NCBI GenBank assembly: GCA_963516025.1
Contig: CAUPZU010000012.1
Coordinates: forward strand, 11,749 to 75,748
Direction: 5' to 3'
Origin: Acinetobacter lwoffii
Lineage (GTDB): Bacteria; Pseudomonadota; Gammaproteobacteria; Pseudomonadales; Moraxellaceae
DNA length: 64,000 bases
Shown here: positions 12,458-22,922 of the stretch, one piece after another
Layout of the letters: each line of letters starts with the position of its first letter
Numbering within the stretch: the stretch's first letter is position 1
Notes under the pieces: generated by a model
What the model saw: the letters and a program-made list of their open reading frames with translations, nothing else
Told to the model about the DNA's origin: nothing
The model's database searches: none
Made by a program: the position numbers and the translations under genes

Positions 12458-12934
12458 TTACAAGACTTTGGCAATTTCATCTTCAAGATCTTCAGGCTTG
12501 GTGGTCGGAGCAAAACGGTTCAATACCTTGCCATCACGCCCGATCAGGAATTTGGTAAAATTCCATTTAATTCCATTGCCTAAAATACCTTTGGAATTGT
12601 TAGTCAAATAGCGAAAAATGGCGTGCGCTTCAGGGCCTTTGACATCCACCTTGGAAAACATCGGGAAAGATACCCCGTAATTCTTCTGGCAAAATTCACC
12701 AATCTGTTCATTGGAACCTGGATCTTGACCACCAAACTGATTGCATGGAAATCCCAAAATTTCCAGACCTTGATCTTTATATTTTTCGTAAAGTTTTTCT
12801 AATCCTGAAAATTGTGGGGTAAAACCACACTTACTCGCTGTATTGACGATCAAAAGTACCTTGCCTTCGTAATCTGCAAGTGGCTTGCTTTTGCCATCTA
12901 ACAATTCAGCTTCAAACTGATAAATGTTAGTCAT
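12458..12934 (-). CDS. Glutathione peroxidase (BtuE/Gpx family, Cys-type)
   Basis: [35 protein letters not shown]. Confidence 0.95.
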
Positions 12935-13350
12935 GGATAGGTTTCCTCATCATTTTTTTCTTGTGTTTCTAAGTCCAAAGAAGCCGAGTTGACACAATAA
13001 CGCAAACCGGTCGGTTCTGGGCCATCCGGGAAAACATGCCCTAAGTGTGCGTCACAATGATGACAAACAATCTCAGTTCTGACCATTCCGTGTGAAGTAT
13101 CAGGTAATTCTTCTACCACCGAACTGCTGACGGGACGGTAGAAACTTGGCCAGCCACAGCCGCTGTCATACTTGGTTTCAGATGAGAACAGTGGCGTGCC
13201 GCAGCAACGGCATACATAGGTGCCATCTTGCTTGGTATTCCAGTATTTTCCAGTAAATGCCGGCTCGGTTCCCTTCTCGCGCGTAATGCGAAACTCCTCA
13301 GGTGATAACTCTCTTTGCCATTCCCGGTCTGATTTATTGAGTTTTCCCAT
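12931..13350 (-). CDS. msrB: Peptide-methionine (R)-S-oxide reductase
   Basis: [36 protein letters not shown]. Confidence 0.96.
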
Positions 13351-13528
13351 GATCACATACCTTTTTATCTTGCTATTTAAAATAGGATAATCCTATATTT
13401 ACGTGATTCATTTTAAAAATTCTAGTCTTTATTCAACATTTTACAAAAGACATATAATGCCTAAAAAAGCAAAAAGAAAGCAAATATAGAAATAAAAGTA
13501 AGCAATTTTTACATTAAATGTTTTTTAG

Positions 13529-13568
13529 TGAGCAAATTTAATGGTATTCTTGGCTCTAAATTTGCTCA
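13529..13568. promoter_or_regulatory. Perfect 12-bp inverted repeat (candidate operator) enclosing an extended -10 box and touching the alaA RBS
   Basis: TGAGCAAATTTA-N16-TAAATTTGCTCA; TGgTATTCT at 13542-13550; AGGA at 13568-13571. Confidence 0.6.
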
Positions 13569-13578
13569 GGATTAAAAA

Positions 13579-15009
13579 ATGTCGCAAAAAAAGAGCGTAA
13601 TTTTTAAAAATCTGCTGCCTGTGATCAAACAATATCAGCAGCTTGGATTTACGCATGAAAAAATTGTTGCACTACTTCGAGATGAACATGATCTCGATCT
13701 AGTCACAACTGAGACATTTAAAAGTTATTTATATCGTTATGCAAAAGTGACCTCCACTCCTTCCGAGAACATCAAAATGCCGAACACTTTCCAAACCCCT
13801 CGCGAGATCAAGAAATCATCTAAGCTCGAGCATGTGTGCTACGACATTCGCGGACCTGTGTTACGAGCGGCCATCGAGATGGAAGAAGCCGGTCACAAAA
13901 TTATCAAATTAAATATTGGCAACCCTGCCCCATTTGGTTTTGAAGCACCACAAGAAATTATCAACGATGTGGCTTTAAACCTGCCAAATGCGATTGGCTA
14001 CACGGATTCCAAAGGGATTTTCCCGGCGCGTAAGGCGATCTGTCAGTATTATCAGCAAAAAGGCATTCTGGATATGCACGTCAATGACGTTTATATCGGC
14101 AATGGTGTGTCTGAACTGATTGTTATGGCCATGCAGGGTCTGCTGGATGATGGCGATGAAATGCTGATTCCAATGCCAGATTATCCACTCTGGACGGCAG
14201 CAGTGAATCTGTCTGGCGGTACTGCGATCCATTATAAATGTGATGAAGAAAATCACTGGTATCCAGATATTGCTGATATGGAAAGCAAAATCACGCCAAA
14301 TACCCGCGGTATTGTGATTATCAACCCGAATAACCCGACTGGTTCGGTTTATCCACGTCATGTGTTGCAACAAATCGTCGACTTGGCCAAGAAATATGAC
14401 CTGATTTTATTTGCTGATGAAATCTACGACAAAATTATTTACGATGGAATCGAGCATGTTGCTGTAGCAGCTCTGGCTGGCGATCAGCTCTGTGTCTCGT
14501 TTAACGGTTTATCTAAAGCCTATCGTATTGCTGGTTTCCGTTCCGGCTGGATGGCCATTACCGGCGATAAAGCACGTGCAGCAGACTATATCGAAGGTCT
14601 GGATATGCTGGCGTCGATGCGTCTGTGTGCCAACCATCAGGCACAATATGCGATTCAGACCGCACTGGGCGGTTATCAGTCAATTAACGACCTGATTCGT
14701 CCGGGCGGGCGTTTATATGAACAGCGCAACATTGCCTGGGAAATGCTGAACGAGATTCCAGGTGTGTCTTGTGTCAAACCTGAAGGTGCGATGTACTGCT
14801 TCCCGAAACTGGATCCGAATGTGTATCCAATCCAAGACGATGAAAAGCTAATGCTGGATTTGTTACGTGCCGAGAAAGTGCTTCTGGTTCAAGGTACAGG
14901 CTTTAACTGGCCGACACCGGATCATTTCCGTGTAGTATTCCTGCCGGCTGAAAATGAACTGCGTGAAGCCATTACCCGTGTTGGCCGTTTCCTGGCCAAG
15001 ATACGTTAA
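13579..15009 (+). CDS. alaA: Alanine aminotransferase AlaA/AlaT (PLP class I) with an extra 66-aa N-terminal domain
   Basis: KSSKLEHVCYDIRGPV, KLNIGNPAPFGF, NPNNPTG, FNGLSKAYRIAGFRSGW. The enzyme core begins near Met67 (13777). Confidence 0.92.
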   Translation: MSQKKSVIFKNLLPVIKQYQQLGFTHEKIVALLRDEHDLDLVTTETFKSYLYRYAKVTSTPSENIKMPNTFQTPREIKKSSKLEHVCYDIRGPVLRAAIEMEEAGHKIIKLNIGNPAPFGFEAPQEIINDVALNLPNAIGYTDSKGIFPARKAICQYYQQKGILDMHVNDVYIGNGVSELIVMAMQGLLDDGDEMLIPMPDYPLWTAAVNLSGGTAIHYKCDEENHWYPDIADMESKITPNTRGIVIINPNNPTGSVYPRHVLQQIVDLAKKYDLILFADEIYDKIIYDGIEHVAVAALAGDQLCVSFNGLSKAYRIAGFRSGWMAITGDKARAADYIEGLDMLASMRLCANHQAQYAIQTALGGYQSINDLIRPGGRLYEQRNIAWEMLNEIPGVSCVKPEGAMYCFPKLDPNVYPIQDDEKLMLDLLRAEKVLLVQGTGFNWPTPDHFRVVFLPAENELREAITRVGRFLAKIR

Positions 15010-15027: not shown

Positions 15028-15058
15028 TAAAAAACCGCGTTGAGACGCGGTTTTTTAT
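15028..15058 (+). terminator. Rho-independent terminator after alaA
   Basis: AAAAAACCGCGT-TGAG-ACGCGGTTTTTT. Confidence 0.85.
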
Positions 15059-18997: not shown

Positions 18998-19786
18998 ATG
19001 AAAATCGTCATTCTAAACAAACCTTATGACGTCCTCTCCCAATTCCGTGCGGATGAAAAGCACCCAACCATGGCTGATTTTGTCAACGACAAAGATTTAC
19101 GTCTTGCGGGTCGTTTGGACATGGACTCAGAAGGTCTGGTTTTCCTCACCGATCACGGTGGTCTCAACCAATATATCACCAATCCTGCCAATAAAAAGTT
19201 TAAAACTTATATGGTGCAAGTGGAAGGTGATGTGACCGAAGAAGCACTTGAACAGCTTCGTAAAGGCGTTGAACTGAAAGATGGCATGACGCTTCCTGCA
19301 CGTGCTGAAAAAGTGTCTGAACCGGAATGGTTGTGGGAGCGTAATCCTCCTGTACGTTTCCGTGCCTCTGTTCCGACGTCTTGGGTTGAGATTTCAATCT
19401 GTGAAGGTCGTAACCGTCAGGTTCGTCGTATGACATCTGCTGTCGGCTTCCCTACACTGCGTTTGATCCGTACCAAAATTGGTGAGATTGATTTGGTTCG
19501 TATGGGATTGCAACCGGGTGAAACCAGAGAAATTGAACCATTACTTTATCCAGACTTCCAGAATGTTCCTGCGGAAGAACCATACCGTTCACGCTCTTAT
19601 GTGAAAAAGCCGGGTGGTACGGGTGGTAAGCCAATGGTTCGCAAGAACAAAGATGGTTCTGTGAAAAAGTCTGGCACCAAACGTATCTGGCAAATGGATG
19701 AAAGTGAAAAGCCGCGTCGTAAGACCAATGGCACAACTCGTCCAAATACCAAAGCACCTCGTGGTCGCGGACGCGGTCGTGGTTAA
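18998..19786 (+). CDS. rluE: 23S rRNA pseudouridine synthase E with a long basic C-terminal tail
   Basis: LNKPYDVLSQF, AGRLDMDSEGL, EGRNRQVRRMT; divergent from icd. Confidence 0.88.
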   Translation: MKIVILNKPYDVLSQFRADEKHPTMADFVNDKDLRLAGRLDMDSEGLVFLTDHGGLNQYITNPANKKFKTYMVQVEGDVTEEALEQLRKGVELKDGMTLPARAEKVSEPEWLWERNPPVRFRASVPTSWVEISICEGRNRQVRRMTSAVGFPTLRLIRTKIGEIDLVRMGLQPGETREIEPLLYPDFQNVPAEEPYRSRSYVKKPGGTGGKPMVRKNKDGSVKKSGTKRIWQMDESEKPRRKTNGTTRPNTKAPRGRGRGRG

Positions 19787-21168
19787 AACCCAGTCTGCTC
19801 ATCAGGTAGGGACAGGCTAAAGATCACGCCAGACGGTGTATTTTCTACAGTTGTCTGCCCCTGATGGAGCTGCATGATCGACTGTACAATGGCAAGGCCC
19901 AGACCACCCGTCTGGGCTTTTTCGTGCCGGCTGTCATCGATCTGATAAAAACGCTCAAATAAATGCGGATGGTGCTGCTCTGCAATCCAGACTTCTGGCG
20001 TCAACACTGATATTTTAATCCTGTGGTTGAGTCGCTGTGCAGACACAATAATCTCACTCCCAGGCTGACCATAAGTAATGGCATTGCTGATCAGATTGGC
20101 GACTGCGCGCTGTAACAATACGGTGCTGGCTGTCAGACTTAAATCTGGCGGAACATCCACTTTTAAATGCATCTGCTTCTCTTCGGCCAGAAAGCTGAAG
20201 TACTCAAGCAATTCTTGCAGCATGTCATTTAGATTGAAACGCTGTTTTTCAATCGCATATCCGCCATGTTCTACCCGGGCGATAAACAGCATACTTTCAA
20301 TCATCTGGCTCAGGCGTTCGTATTCTTCCAAGTTGGAATAGAGCAGATTTTCCAGCTCAGCAGGTTCGCGCGACCGCGATAACAGAATCTGTGTCTGCCC
20401 GATTAAATTGTTTAATGGGGTGCGAAGTTCGTGTGAAATATCCTCAGAAAAACGTGCCAGCTGCTGATACGCAGCCTGAATATTAGCGAGCATATCGTTC
20501 ATGGCCTGACGCAGCTCTTGAACCTCAAGCGTATTACTCTGAACATCGATGTGCTGATTGGGCTGCTGAATATTGACCTGTGCTGTAGCCAGCATCAACT
20601 GGCGCATGGACTTGAGAATATAGCGTCCTGCCAGCCAGGCCATCAAGGTCGAGAGCAGTATGCCAAGCAGACTATAGAGCACCAGTTTTGATAAATAGCT
20701 TGCCAGTATCCTTTGTCCCTCTGCCAGCTGCTTGCCGGCCACCAACTGATAACTGCGACCATCAAACTGCACCTGTTTAAAAGCCAGTCGTGTCGAAGGC
20801 TGTTCGGCCTGATTATTCTGAAACTGTAATGCGGAGCTATAGTGCAATGCCGGAATATGAACCTGCAAAGGATTGATTTCAATCAAGCGATTATTCTGAT
20901 GTTGCAGCAGCAGTAGATTATCTTCTTGCCCCAGCATGTTTTCATATAATTTGGGATGCTGAACCAAAAGCTCGAAACTCTGGGCATCTTCAAGAAATAT
21001 TTCAATTCGGGAAATACGCGCAGCCAAGGCCTGATCCTGCTGAGCCTGAATCATCTGTTGCATATTTTGATAAGACAGTAACGCCACACTCAAAAAAACC
21101 ACGCAGGACACCAATGCAAACGCAATACTCAAGCGTGTTGCCAGCGGTAATAAGATAGGATTGTTCAT
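19783..21168 (-). CDS. CusS/HprS(YedV)/IrlS-like sensor histidine kinase
   Basis: Two TMs, HAMP, H-box FSEDISHELRTPL, NLISNA, GGLGLAIV. Confidence 0.9.
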   Translation of the reverse strand: MNNPILLPLATRLSIAFALVSCVVFLSVALLSYQNMQQMIQAQQDQALAARISRIEIFLEDAQSFELLVQHPKLYENMLGQEDNLLLLQHQNNRLIEINPLQVHIPALHYSSALQFQNNQAEQPSTRLAFKQVQFDGRSYQLVAGKQLAEGQRILASYLSKLVLYSLLGILLSTLMAWLAGRYILKSMRQLMLATAQVNIQQPNQHIDVQSNTLEVQELRQAMNDMLANIQAAYQQLARFSEDISHELRTPLNNLIGQTQILLSRSREPAELENLLYSNLEEYERLSQMIESMLFIARVEHGGYAIEKQRFNLNDMLQELLEYFSFLAEEKQMHLKVDVPPDLSLTASTVLLQRAVANLISNAITYGQPGSEIIVSAQRLNHRIKISVLTPEVWIAEQHHPHLFERFYQIDDSRHEKAQTGGLGLAIVQSIMQLHQGQTTVENTPSGVIFSLSLPDEQTGF

Positions 21169-21836
21169 GGGTATTCATCAAGTTTATAACCCATACCGCG
21201 TACGGTATGAATCAGTTTTGGCGTGTAATGATCATCAATTTTGCTCCGCAGCCTGCGAATGGCCACATCCACCACATTGGTATCGGTATTAAAATTGATA
21301 TTCCAGACCATGGAGGCAATCTGGCTCCGTGTCATCACCTGCCCCTGATGCTCCATCAACAGTTGCAACAGCGCAAATTCTTTCTGGCTTAATTCGATCT
21401 TTTGTTCATTACGATATACTTCATGCTTTAGGCGGTTCAATACCAGACCTGCAACCTGATAGGCCTCCTGCTCCAGTCGCGGCACACGGCGCAACAGACT
21501 TTTGATCCGGGCCAGTAACTCAATATAGGAAAAAGGTTTGGTCAGATAATCATCGGCGCCAAGCTCCAGGCCTTTCACCCGATCCAGCACATGATCGCGT
21601 GCAGTGAGCATCAATACCGGAATCTGGCTAAAAGTTCGCAAGGTTTTCAGCACCTGCCAGCCGTCCAGATCTGGCAGCATTACATCCAGCAGTACCAGAT
21701 CAAATGACTGTTGCTGCAAACAGGCCAATGCCAACACGCCATTTTCAGCAATGGCCGTGCTATAACCTGACTCACTCAGTCCTTTTGCCAGATATTCAGC
21801 AATCTTGACTTCATCTTCTACAATTAAAATATGCAT
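21165..21836 (-). CDS. CusR/HprR(YedW)/IrlR-like OmpR-family response regulator
   Basis: LDVMLP, GADDYLTKPF, WNINFNTDTNVVDVAIRRLRSKID. Confidence 0.92.
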   Translation of the reverse strand: MHILIVEDEVKIAEYLAKGLSESGYSTAIAENGVLALACLQQQSFDLVLLDVMLPDLDGWQVLKTLRTFSQIPVLMLTARDHVLDRVKGLELGADDYLTKPFSYIELLARIKSLLRRVPRLEQEAYQVAGLVLNRLKHEVYRNEQKIELSQKEFALLQLLMEHQGQVMTRSQIASMVWNINFNTDTNVVDVAIRRLRSKIDDHYTPKLIHTVRGMGYKLDEYP

Positions 21837-21868
21837 GTCAGTAGTTTAGCTGTTTTTACCTATGCCTA

Positions 21869-21886
21869 GATTACAAATTGGTAATC
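21869..21886. promoter_or_regulatory. CusR/HprR-type palindromic binding box
   Basis: GATTACAAATTGGTAATC near-palindrome, similar to the ATNACAAnnTTGTNAT box, between divergent genes. Confidence 0.7.
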
Positions 21887-21947
21887 TGATTGTCATGCTG
21901 CACTGGCGTATTTCTTTCTACAATAGCAACAGTATTCAATTGCATGA

Positions 21948-22454
21948 ATGACAAGTATGAAAAATTCAATCGCCAAAACAACCCTAGCCTTGTTCAGCAG
22001 CTCATTACTACTCAGCTCACTGGCACATGCAGAATTAAAAACAGCACCAGTCATGTCGCTAGAAGCAGCAAAGCTTATGGCCAGCAATGTCATGTTGGCC
22101 TGCCAGAAACAGGCCAAGCCCGCAGCAGTCGTGGTTCTGGATCAGGGTGGTAATCTGCTGGCTAGTCAACGCCATGAATCTGTCGGCATTCACAACCTGA
22201 TCGCAGCAGAACGCAAGGCCTTTACCGCGTATTCAACGAAAACCAGTACGCTGGATTTTATGCGCAATGCCCAGAACAATCCGGACGCACAGAACCTGAA
22301 TAGTTTGCCTGAACTGCTGTTACTGGGCGGCGGTGTACCTGTTATGTACCAGAATCATATTTTAGGTGCTGTAGGTGTTGCGGGTGCAGGCGGTTCGGAA
22401 CAGGATCATCAATGTGCCAATAGCGGCATTCAAAGCACTTTAAAACAGCTTTAA
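21948..22454 (+). CDS. Secreted GlcG/HbpS family heme-binding protein
   Basis: Signal peptide ending AHA; AERKAFTA, LLGGGVPV, GAVGVAGAGG..DHQCA. Start may be 21957. Confidence 0.88.
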   Translation: MTSMKNSIAKTTLALFSSSLLLSSLAHAELKTAPVMSLEAAKLMASNVMLACQKQAKPAAVVVLDQGGNLLASQRHESVGIHNLIAAERKAFTAYSTKTSTLDFMRNAQNNPDAQNLNSLPELLLLGGGVPVMYQNHILGAVGVAGAGGSEQDHQCANSGIQSTLKQL

Positions 22455-22523
22455 TCTATTTAAATAAGTCTTATTGGTTTCTTTTATTCAATATTACTTC
22501 ATCCATCTACTGAGGAATACAAC

Positions 22524-22922
22524 ATGAAAAAAATCCTGCTAGCAACCCTTGCGAGCACCGCAGCCACGCTTTCCTTTGCACAGAATCCACTTAGTGTGCA
22601 TGTTCTGAATCAGGAAACAGGTTTACCTTCCGCAAATATTGCAGTTACTTTGGAAGCACAGCAAGGTGAGAAATGGGTCAAGCTCAATGAAGCTGAAACA
22701 GATCAAAATGGCCGTATTAAAGAGCTATATCCAAAAGATACCAATCTGCAAAAGGGTATTTATAAAGTGACCTTTAAAACGGGTGACTGGTTTAAGGCCA
22801 ATAATCAGCGGACATTCTTCCCTGAAGTACCGGTGGTCTTTATGATTGATGGTGCTTTAGAGCATTATCATATTCCACTGTTATTGAGCTCTTATGGTTA
22901 TTCGACTTATCGCGGTAACTAA
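22524..22922 (+). CDS. hiuH: Periplasmic transthyretin-like 5-hydroxyisourate hydrolase
   Basis: Signal peptide; LSVHVLN, TDQNGRI, FFPEV, HYHIPLLLS.YGYSTYRGN. Confidence 0.9.
   Translation: MKKILLATLASTAATLSFAQNPLSVHVLNQETGLPSANIAVTLEAQQGEKWVKLNEAETDQNGRIKELYPKDTNLQKGIYKVTFKTGDWFKANNQRTFFPEVPVVFMIDGALEHYHIPLLLSSYGYSTYRGN

Follow-up and report, generated by a model that had tools for sequence, protein, structure and literature searches.

An StbA-family domain fused to the aminotransferase AlaA of Acinetobacter and its predicted operator

Organization of the alaA locus

The window, the whole stretch of 64,000 nucleotides of Acinetobacter lwoffii DNA analysed here, carries a chromosomal alaA gene that sits between the divergent msrB and an MFS gene. 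The gene is a single open frame (13579-15009, plus strand) encoding a fusion of 476 aa, and the junction between its N-terminal extension and its aminotransferase core contains neither a stop nor a frameshift. The locus comprises the following features:

12931..13356, minus strand: msrB (Pfam SelR, E 3e-54), divergent neighbour by which the orthologous locus is recognised; context, outside the proposed circuit
13467..13483, plus strand: tandem direct repeats R1 (AAGCAA, 13467-13472) and R2 (13478-13483) with an 11-bp period; predicted high-affinity operator
13500..13505, plus strand: repeat R3 (AAGCAA), 22 bp after R2, near -79 from the ATG in most Acinetobacter fused loci
13530..13535, plus strand: repeat R4 (GAGCAA) in the -35/-10 spacer; predicted repressing site (A. 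baumannii copy at -27 to -22)
13542..13550, plus strand: extended -10 element TG-n-TATTCT, aligning with -15 to -7 of the ACX60_10800 primary start site
13561..13567, minus strand: inverted fifth repeat copy beside the ribosome site, lwoffii-type alleles only; read directly from the sequence
13568..13581, plus strand: ribosome-binding site AGGA and first ATG (long form); read directly, with anti-SD pairing
13579..13746, plus strand: StbA-family three-helix HTH domain, residues 1-56 (7pc1 profile match, model, dN/dS 0.077)
13747..13806, plus strand: variable linker, residues 57-76 (47% mean identity, dN/dS 0.48, pLDDT below 50 at residues 57-71)
13765..13779, plus strand: internal ATG (Met67) behind a weak ribosome site, GAGAA; predicted plain-enzyme start, from Met conservation in the linkers
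13807..15009, plus strand: AlaA glutamate-pyruvate aminotransferase core, residues 77-476 (4cvq match, 67% identity, 11/11 residues)
15029..15056, plus strand: terminator-like hairpin with a T run after alaA; read directly from the sequence

One RNA contig stops at 15027, just before the terminator-like hairpin. Elsewhere in the window, positions 19783-22922 hold what we take to be a two-component pair, encoded on the minus strand, and, transcribed divergently from it, genes for a heme-binding GlcG-like protein and a transthyretin-like hydrolase.

The aminotransferase core

Core residues 76-473 match E. coli AlaA (PDB 4cvq) collinearly with an E value of 1.7e-185, and an ungapped alignment of the core with an enterobacterial AlaA shows 67% identity. 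K313 (14515-14517) is the PLP lysine. Eleven plug, PLP-binding and substrate residues, taken from the available part of the E. coli AlaA paper (Y15, I17, R18, G41, Y68, Y129, N179, D207, Y210, K240 and R378 in E. coli numbering; PMC4094517), are all kept in 35/35 fused genes; position 276 was left out of this check because the residue name in the paper and the alignment disagree. A reading of the DNA made earlier from the sequence alone (the sequence-only reading) had claimed extra N-terminal residues before an intact AlaA core with its PLP lysine, and the peptide, the open frame, K313 and the 11 kept residues bear it out. The fused gene is also the only AlaA of its genome, the next-best tblastn match having 27.5% identity; from the sequence and this sole status we infer alanine transaminase activity.

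The N-terminal extension resembles plasmid StbA

The folded part of the extension, hereafter the head, spans residues about 1-56 and is followed by a low-confidence stretch (residues 57-71). Searched alone, the extension scores 18.2 bits (E 0.003) against NCBIfam StbA_2 (NF041290), which has a cut-off of 100. A profile of 12 rows, seven fused and five free, matches the domain by which StbA from plasmid R388 binds DNA (PDB 7pc1) with an E value of 5.1e-11; the other top profile rows are designed repeat proteins, with no stretch passing alone. Residues T59, F60, S62, L64, R66 and K69 of R388 StbA are kept in the head profile, R61 is replaced by Lys and R68 by Ala, and the turn Gly is not conserved. 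The recognition helix is T46-FKSYLYRY-K56, of which T46 to Y54 are invariant in all 35 fused genes.

The AlphaFold model of the head (112 rows, pLDDT 88) consists of helices only (residues 5-22, 26-37 and 44-58), without a wing. In a fold comparison with 48,161 chains, 7pc1 ranks first, with a Z score of 7.3, which lies below the tool's caution level of 8, and an rmsd of 2.1 over 57 residues at 32% identity; the next-best fold has a Z score of 5.9. Foldseek with the same model gave no match at E ≤ 0.001, and 7pc1 was not among its matches. The helix-turn-helix-like fold that the sequence-only reading had proposed to check is thus consistent with the all-helical model and its first-ranked match, though Foldseek did not return one. 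That reading had likened the extension to both StbA and TraK: the StbA half stands on the 7pc1 profile match and the first fold match, while profile scans of Pfam and NCBIfam at E ≤ 1 found no TraK family match. Nor does the fused protein match a GntR domain in Pfam, the head being of the wingless StbA type. By these profile and model comparisons, the extension belongs to the plasmid StbA HTH family. A whole StbA partition protein, which is free, about 135-175 aa long, encoded beside oriT and stbB and includes a C-terminal half, was rejected as a description of the 476-aa fusion, given the 18.2 bits against a cut-off of 100. The full-length model of the fusion is poor (pLDDT 61, pTM 0.52) and shows no contact between head and core.

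The fused protein is the sole StbA-family match in its own genome. Free StbA relatives are proteins of 117-162 aa on small contigs or plasmids; several are the first gene of stbA-stbB modules beside mobilisation genes, others lie near rep or mob genes, and A. baumannii, A. pittii and A. nosocomialis all have records of plasmids with free StbA. Genome G154, whose alaA is head-less, has on a 12-kb contig a free StbA (locus L031, 7917-8267) that belongs to the type most similar to the fused head, at 50-53% identity. A tree of the 54-column head domain had too low a resolution to name a donor. In a profile search of proteins of 313-2000 aa, 30/30 StbA-head matches were AlaA fusions, a weak result because it comes from an incomplete search in which 7998 candidates were scored; the best 150 of 322 representative StbA-type matches are mostly 40-300 aa long.

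Distribution and selection of the fusion

Matches to the extension occur in 43 of 251 family genomes, six as free proteins and 37 as fusions, the latter answering the survey of Moraxellaceae that had been proposed from the sequence alone. The 37 fused genomes show 73-100% identity and open frames of 477-506 aa without stops. They comprise 32/49 genomes of the same genus and 5/6 genomes of the Alkanindiges type (g15), and the remaining 17/49 own-genus genomes carry a head-less AlaA with 86-95% core identity. Records of A. baumannii hold the fusion. The loci of 35 of these 37 fused genomes were fetched. Phage records that hold the fusion gene look like host DNA, and NZ_CP039931.1, deposited as an A. 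baumannii plasmid of 85 kb, holds the chromosomal dapC-gpx-msrB-alaA block and is likely a misfiled piece of chromosome.

Across the 35 fused genes, dN/dS is 0.077 for residues 2-56, 0.48 for the linker and 0.019 for the core (163, 247 and 85 pairs, respectively, within the saturation filter, of 595), and 33 of the 56 head positions are invariant. Purifying selection on the extension, another check set by the sequence-only reading, is present. Fused genomes are interspersed with unfused ones in an rpoB tree (29 genomes), with six changes, three of them forced by well-supported branches; headed and head-less genes also interleave in the AlaA core tree, with weak support. The unfused alleles mostly share one N-terminus and a palindrome (11/17), which points to a single alternative cassette moved by recombination and not to many deletions, and they were therefore not counted as independent losses. 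Since domain and promoter travel as one cassette, the co-occurrence of head and repeats described below amounts to few independent events.

Direct repeats upstream of alaA

The promoter region holds four direct copies of the repeat with one contiguous pair, not two arrays of five. Neither these repeats nor the other heads described below figure in the sequence-only reading. Relative to the inferred start site, the R1-R2 pair occupies about -90 to -74; R4 is single, 30 bp from R3 and out of the 11-bp phase. TTGCT is found just 5' of AGGA in 9 of the loci L001-L011. In lwoffii-type alleles, R4 and the fifth copy form a perfect 12-bp inverted repeat around the -10 element (13529-13568 of the window).

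The pair AGCAA-N6-AGCA is present in 34/35 fused loci, compared to 0/20 head-less and 0/6 XRE loci (see below). In a later set of named records with duplicates removed, it occurs in 12/12 fused loci, 0/4 head-less Acinetobacter loci and 0/54 distant AlaA loci. The motif columns are 96% conserved over 29 distinct upstream regions, compared to 69% for the remaining columns. The genome itself contains 1105 matches to the monomer but a single cluster, which is the alaA promoter. An operator matrix built from chromosomal sites only (training range 28-36.6) scores 33.5 at the alaA promoter and 17.8 at the next-best site, and in scans of this genome for a wider regulon, matrix and cluster searches gave only the alaA promoter. 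As the sole strong site is its own promoter and no other target was found, the motif argues for a single-target autoregulator and not for a MocR-like multi-target one. This qualifies the analogy with MocR/GabR drawn earlier.

The repeat cluster is nearly identical to the arrays before two plasmid stbA genes, which score 32.5 (L216, a Moraxella bovis plasmid) and 30.3 (L032). Both loci come from outside Acinetobacter, whereas arrays on Acinetobacter plasmids score 0-15. Among the free relatives, the closest ones (L031, L069 and L220), which have the same recognition helix, score just 7.7-15.3, and the high-scoring L032 has a different recognition helix. Phased WGCAW arrays are found in 10/16 free stbA loci (p 0.002 against dinucleotide shuffles), the other six having none.

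Promoter and transcription start

For the A. baumannii ATCC 17978 gene ACX60_10800, the accessible dRNA-seq table lists one start site, a primary one with a 5' UTR of 22 nt (PMC6182133, Table S2). The upstream sequence of this gene aligns with the window, which would place the start site of the window at about 13557. The mapped start precedes the first ATG, so the possibility that the extension goes unused, raised earlier as a refutation, does not agree with this listed site. The A. baumannii copy of R4 lies at -27 to -22 of the mapped start, between the -35 and -10 elements. The -35 element of alaA is weak, and a consensus promoter scan did not call the alaA promoter. In the same listing, the A. 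baumannii msrB start site is 175 nt from the alaA start, clear of the repeats and about 85 nt from R1, and the msrB promoter elements are common to fused and unfused alleles. In one study, the RNA contigs of two runs start at 13574 and 13569 and leave 13370-13563 uncovered, which is only a weak hint, as two other runs cover the gap.

Two translation starts

The first start has AGGA at 13568-13571, 7 nt before the ATG at 13579, and a second in-frame ATG (13777-13779) follows a weaker GAGAA (13765-13769); the AGGA and the second ATG were both read correctly from the sequence in the earlier account. The anti-SD duplex is -4.1 kcal/mol at the first ATG and -3.0 kcal/mol at the internal one. An internal Met is found at position 67/68 in 13/35 fused genes and at 61/65 in the other 22, and the 13 genes without Met61/65 all have Met67/68. 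A Met lies 10-25 residues before VCYDIRG in 36/36 distinct StbA linkers, 23/24 XRE linkers and 9/9 third-type linkers (68/69), a range that was chosen after looking, in linkers that are kin. Elsewhere in the linkers, Met occupies 0/222, 11/768 and 0/181 residues, respectively. Anti-SD pairing before the internal Met averages -2.3 to -3.5 kcal/mol, compared to 0.1 to 0.8 kcal/mol for neighbouring codons. Because both the internal Met and the ribosome pairing are conserved, a head-less short form is likely also made from the internal start, and the idea of two starts put forward earlier gains support.

Other heads and head-less alleles

AlaA carries a different head, of the XRE type, in 115/250 family genomes from 10 other genera, including 47/48 genomes of Psychrobacter (g19). 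Among these 250 genomes, none of our own genus or of the Alkanindiges type has it, and XRE and StbA fusions never occur in the same genus in this sample. The frames with an XRE head are at least 477 aa long in 113/115 cases. Fusion to AlaA was confirmed in 6 + 18 loci (L060, L064-L068 and L183-L202), two of the 20 loci fetched for the second set not being parsed, and msrB adjoins alaA in XRE-type loci as well. The XRE head corresponds to Pfam HTH_3/HTH_19 and is unrelated to the StbA head. Its loci have a palindrome of their own, TGCAA-N7-TTGCA, in 6/6 of the defining set and in 8/18 out of sample, where 0.04 were expected; its half-site shares GCAA with the StbA repeats, and its length and TGCA ends recall what we take to be the form of NtrC sites.

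A third head is fused to AlaA in 10/12 Aquirhabdus (g16) genomes (L126, 859-1227, and L203-L213), with the conserved upstream motifs ACTATC...GATAG and GACAGATA. Searches of Pfam, NCBIfam, PDB and Atlas gave no match for this head, which is weakly similar (E 2e-3) to a protein facing mobC on IncQ plasmids. Head-less Acinetobacter alaA genes (L043-L055) have the palindrome TAGATT-N13-AATCTA about 57-61 nt before the ATG. It was found in 11/17 head-less loci and then in 4/4 new ones, compared to 0/41 fused loci. As the unfused allele has a conserved palindrome without a head, regulation of alaA in trans likely exists.

A model for self-repression and its alternatives

StbA of R388 is a repressor of its own promoter; it binds to 9-bp repeats with 2-bp spacers, of which two neighbouring copies are required, and its residues 1-75 account for specific binding and for part of the repression, according to the available part of the study (10.1101/2022.04.29.490116). 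Given an StbA-type head together with plasmid-like repeats in its own promoter, we consider it probable that the fusion represses its own gene, a dimeric AlaA with two heads binding R1-R2 and, cooperatively, R3 and R4. AlaA is a dimer. We propose that a common ancestor of Alkanindiges and Acinetobacter acquired, in front of alaA, the 5' end of a plasmid stbA together with its autoregulated promoter. The AlaA dimer would present two heads on flexible linkers, standing in for the lost C-terminal half of StbA. This two-headed dimer would bind the R1-R2 pair, and further dimers on R3 and R4 would block RNA polymerase. The internal start would yield the head-less enzyme, so that the ratio of long to short form sets bulk catalysis against repression. 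The least certain step, to which we give somewhat less than an even chance, is that the substrate or cofactor state tunes DNA binding by the head, which would make the fusion the trigger enzyme suggested by the sequence-only reading. AlaA's N-terminal arm forms the dimer interface and moves in catalysis, as described in the accessible text of PMC4094517, and the head hangs on this mobile arm, so the substrate state may tune binding.

Alternatively, a separate trans-acting regulator might use the repeats while the head does another job, such as non-specific tethering of the enzyme to the nucleoid, which we regard as unlikely. StbA has been linked to confinement of plasmids to the nucleoid, but nucleoid positioning in R388 needs the C-terminal half (10.1101/2022.04.29.490116, available part), which the fusion does not have. 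The palindrome kept by unfused alleles without a head would suit a regulator in trans, as would the GCAA half-sites shared with the XRE-type palindrome. However, there is almost letter-for-letter agreement between the repeats and plasmid stbA arrays, the cluster occurs once in the genome, and the repeats are missing wherever the head is missing; nor does the genome contain another StbA-family match besides the fused protein.

Less probable still, binding of the fusion to the repeats might activate alaA or might serve mainly to control the divergent msrB-gpx. The strongest tandem site, at about -90 to -74, is upstream of the promoter in a position from which activators can work, the -35 element is weak and the consensus scan missed the promoter; against this, R4 sits between -35 and -10 and R388 StbA is a repressor. 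Although msrB and alaA share an intergenic region, from which msrB is transcribed in the opposite direction, the msrB promoter elements do not differ between fused and unfused alleles and the msrB start lies about 85 nt from R1.

It is very improbable that the head is a host mimic of StbA directed against stbS-like arrays of incoming plasmids, with the promoter repeats limiting its level. Two plasmid stb promoters do score like the chromosomal operator, but those loci lie outside Acinetobacter, where the plasmid arrays score far lower, and plasmids with free StbA are on record from three Acinetobacter species. A second, free match was seen in 0/37 fused and 1/17 unfused genomes, numbers too few to count for it. 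An XRE head with a parallel job in other genera also fits autoregulation rather than plasmid defence. Least probable of all, and largely refuted by the selection on the head, is an inert relic with only the internal start in use: head-less alleles are common and the internal Met keeps its weak ribosome site, but dN/dS is low, more than half of the head positions are invariant, the frame is open in 37/37 genomes and the single start site listed for A. baumannii precedes the first ATG.

Self-repression by the fusion can be joined with the other heads into a broader, tentative reading that we would not yet back over its negation. The StbA head and its centromere-like repeats would have been domesticated as a ligand-gated self-repressor of AlaA, as one of three unrelated mobile-element heads fitted to one and the same AlaA socket in Moraxellaceae, every one of which has an operator of its own and an internal start for the plain enzyme. 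The AlaA dimer would then act as an allosteric platform through which the status of alanine, pyruvate or glutamate controls DNA binding by whichever head is attached.

If true, this would be a clear case in which a plasmid partition protein, together with its binding site, has become a regulator of central nitrogen metabolism on the chromosome. The genus concerned includes A. baumannii, and databases name the gene only as an aminotransferase. The alaA locus is a natural domain swap, with an StbA, an XRE, a third or no head, each with a different upstream motif, which makes it directly testable by what route enzymes become fused to regulators and if an active fold-type-I transaminase is able to signal to DNA. 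The short predicted operator may also be useful for studying how StbA-family proteins read DNA.

Comparison with known systems

None of the papers returned by our searches, which covered literature outside subscription, describes the StbA fusion, the operator in its promoter or the exchange of heads. In their available parts, a proteomics paper gives A. baylyi AlaT in a table only (PMC6971185), and a review of aminotransferases makes no mention of HTH or MocR (PMC9309667).

The fusion and R388 StbA share the three-helix HTH family and direct repeats with an 11-bp period before their own gene, and a GCA core is likewise present in the opposite strand of the R388 repeat. They differ in that the fusion has the N-terminal half only, placed on a chromosomal enzyme, and lacks stbB, oriT and the ten-copy stbS. 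Compared to E. coli AlaA, the core is collinear and keeps the 11 named residues, whereas E. coli-type enzymes have no N-terminal head and the repeat pair is absent from the 54 distant loci. The XRE-HTH-AlaA fusions have a similar architecture, with a DNA-binding-type head, a variable linker, an internal Met, an intact AlaA and a motif in their own promoter. However, their head is unrelated, and their site is a palindrome in place of the direct repeats of the StbA fusion. PRK13355, which we take to be an XRE-AlaA fusion of Actinobacteria, presumably provides a precedent for such heads.

PutA, BirA and NadR are active enzymes with an N-terminal DNA-binding domain that represses genes of their own pathway, and in them both DNA binding and ligand control are proven. 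We propose by analogy that StbA-AlaA may work in a similar way, although both enzyme and head differ, and to our knowledge none of the three uses a plasmid partition domain with its site. MocR/GabR proteins consist of an N-terminal GntR HTH, a linker and a fold-type-I PLP domain. The StbA-AlaA fusion likewise joins an HTH domain, a linker and a fold-type-I PLP domain, but it has no GntR domain, its core is a true AlaA and not a diverged sensor, and it has one predicted target. For the MocR regulators, an origin by way of an active fold-type-I transaminase that signals to DNA is generally assumed.
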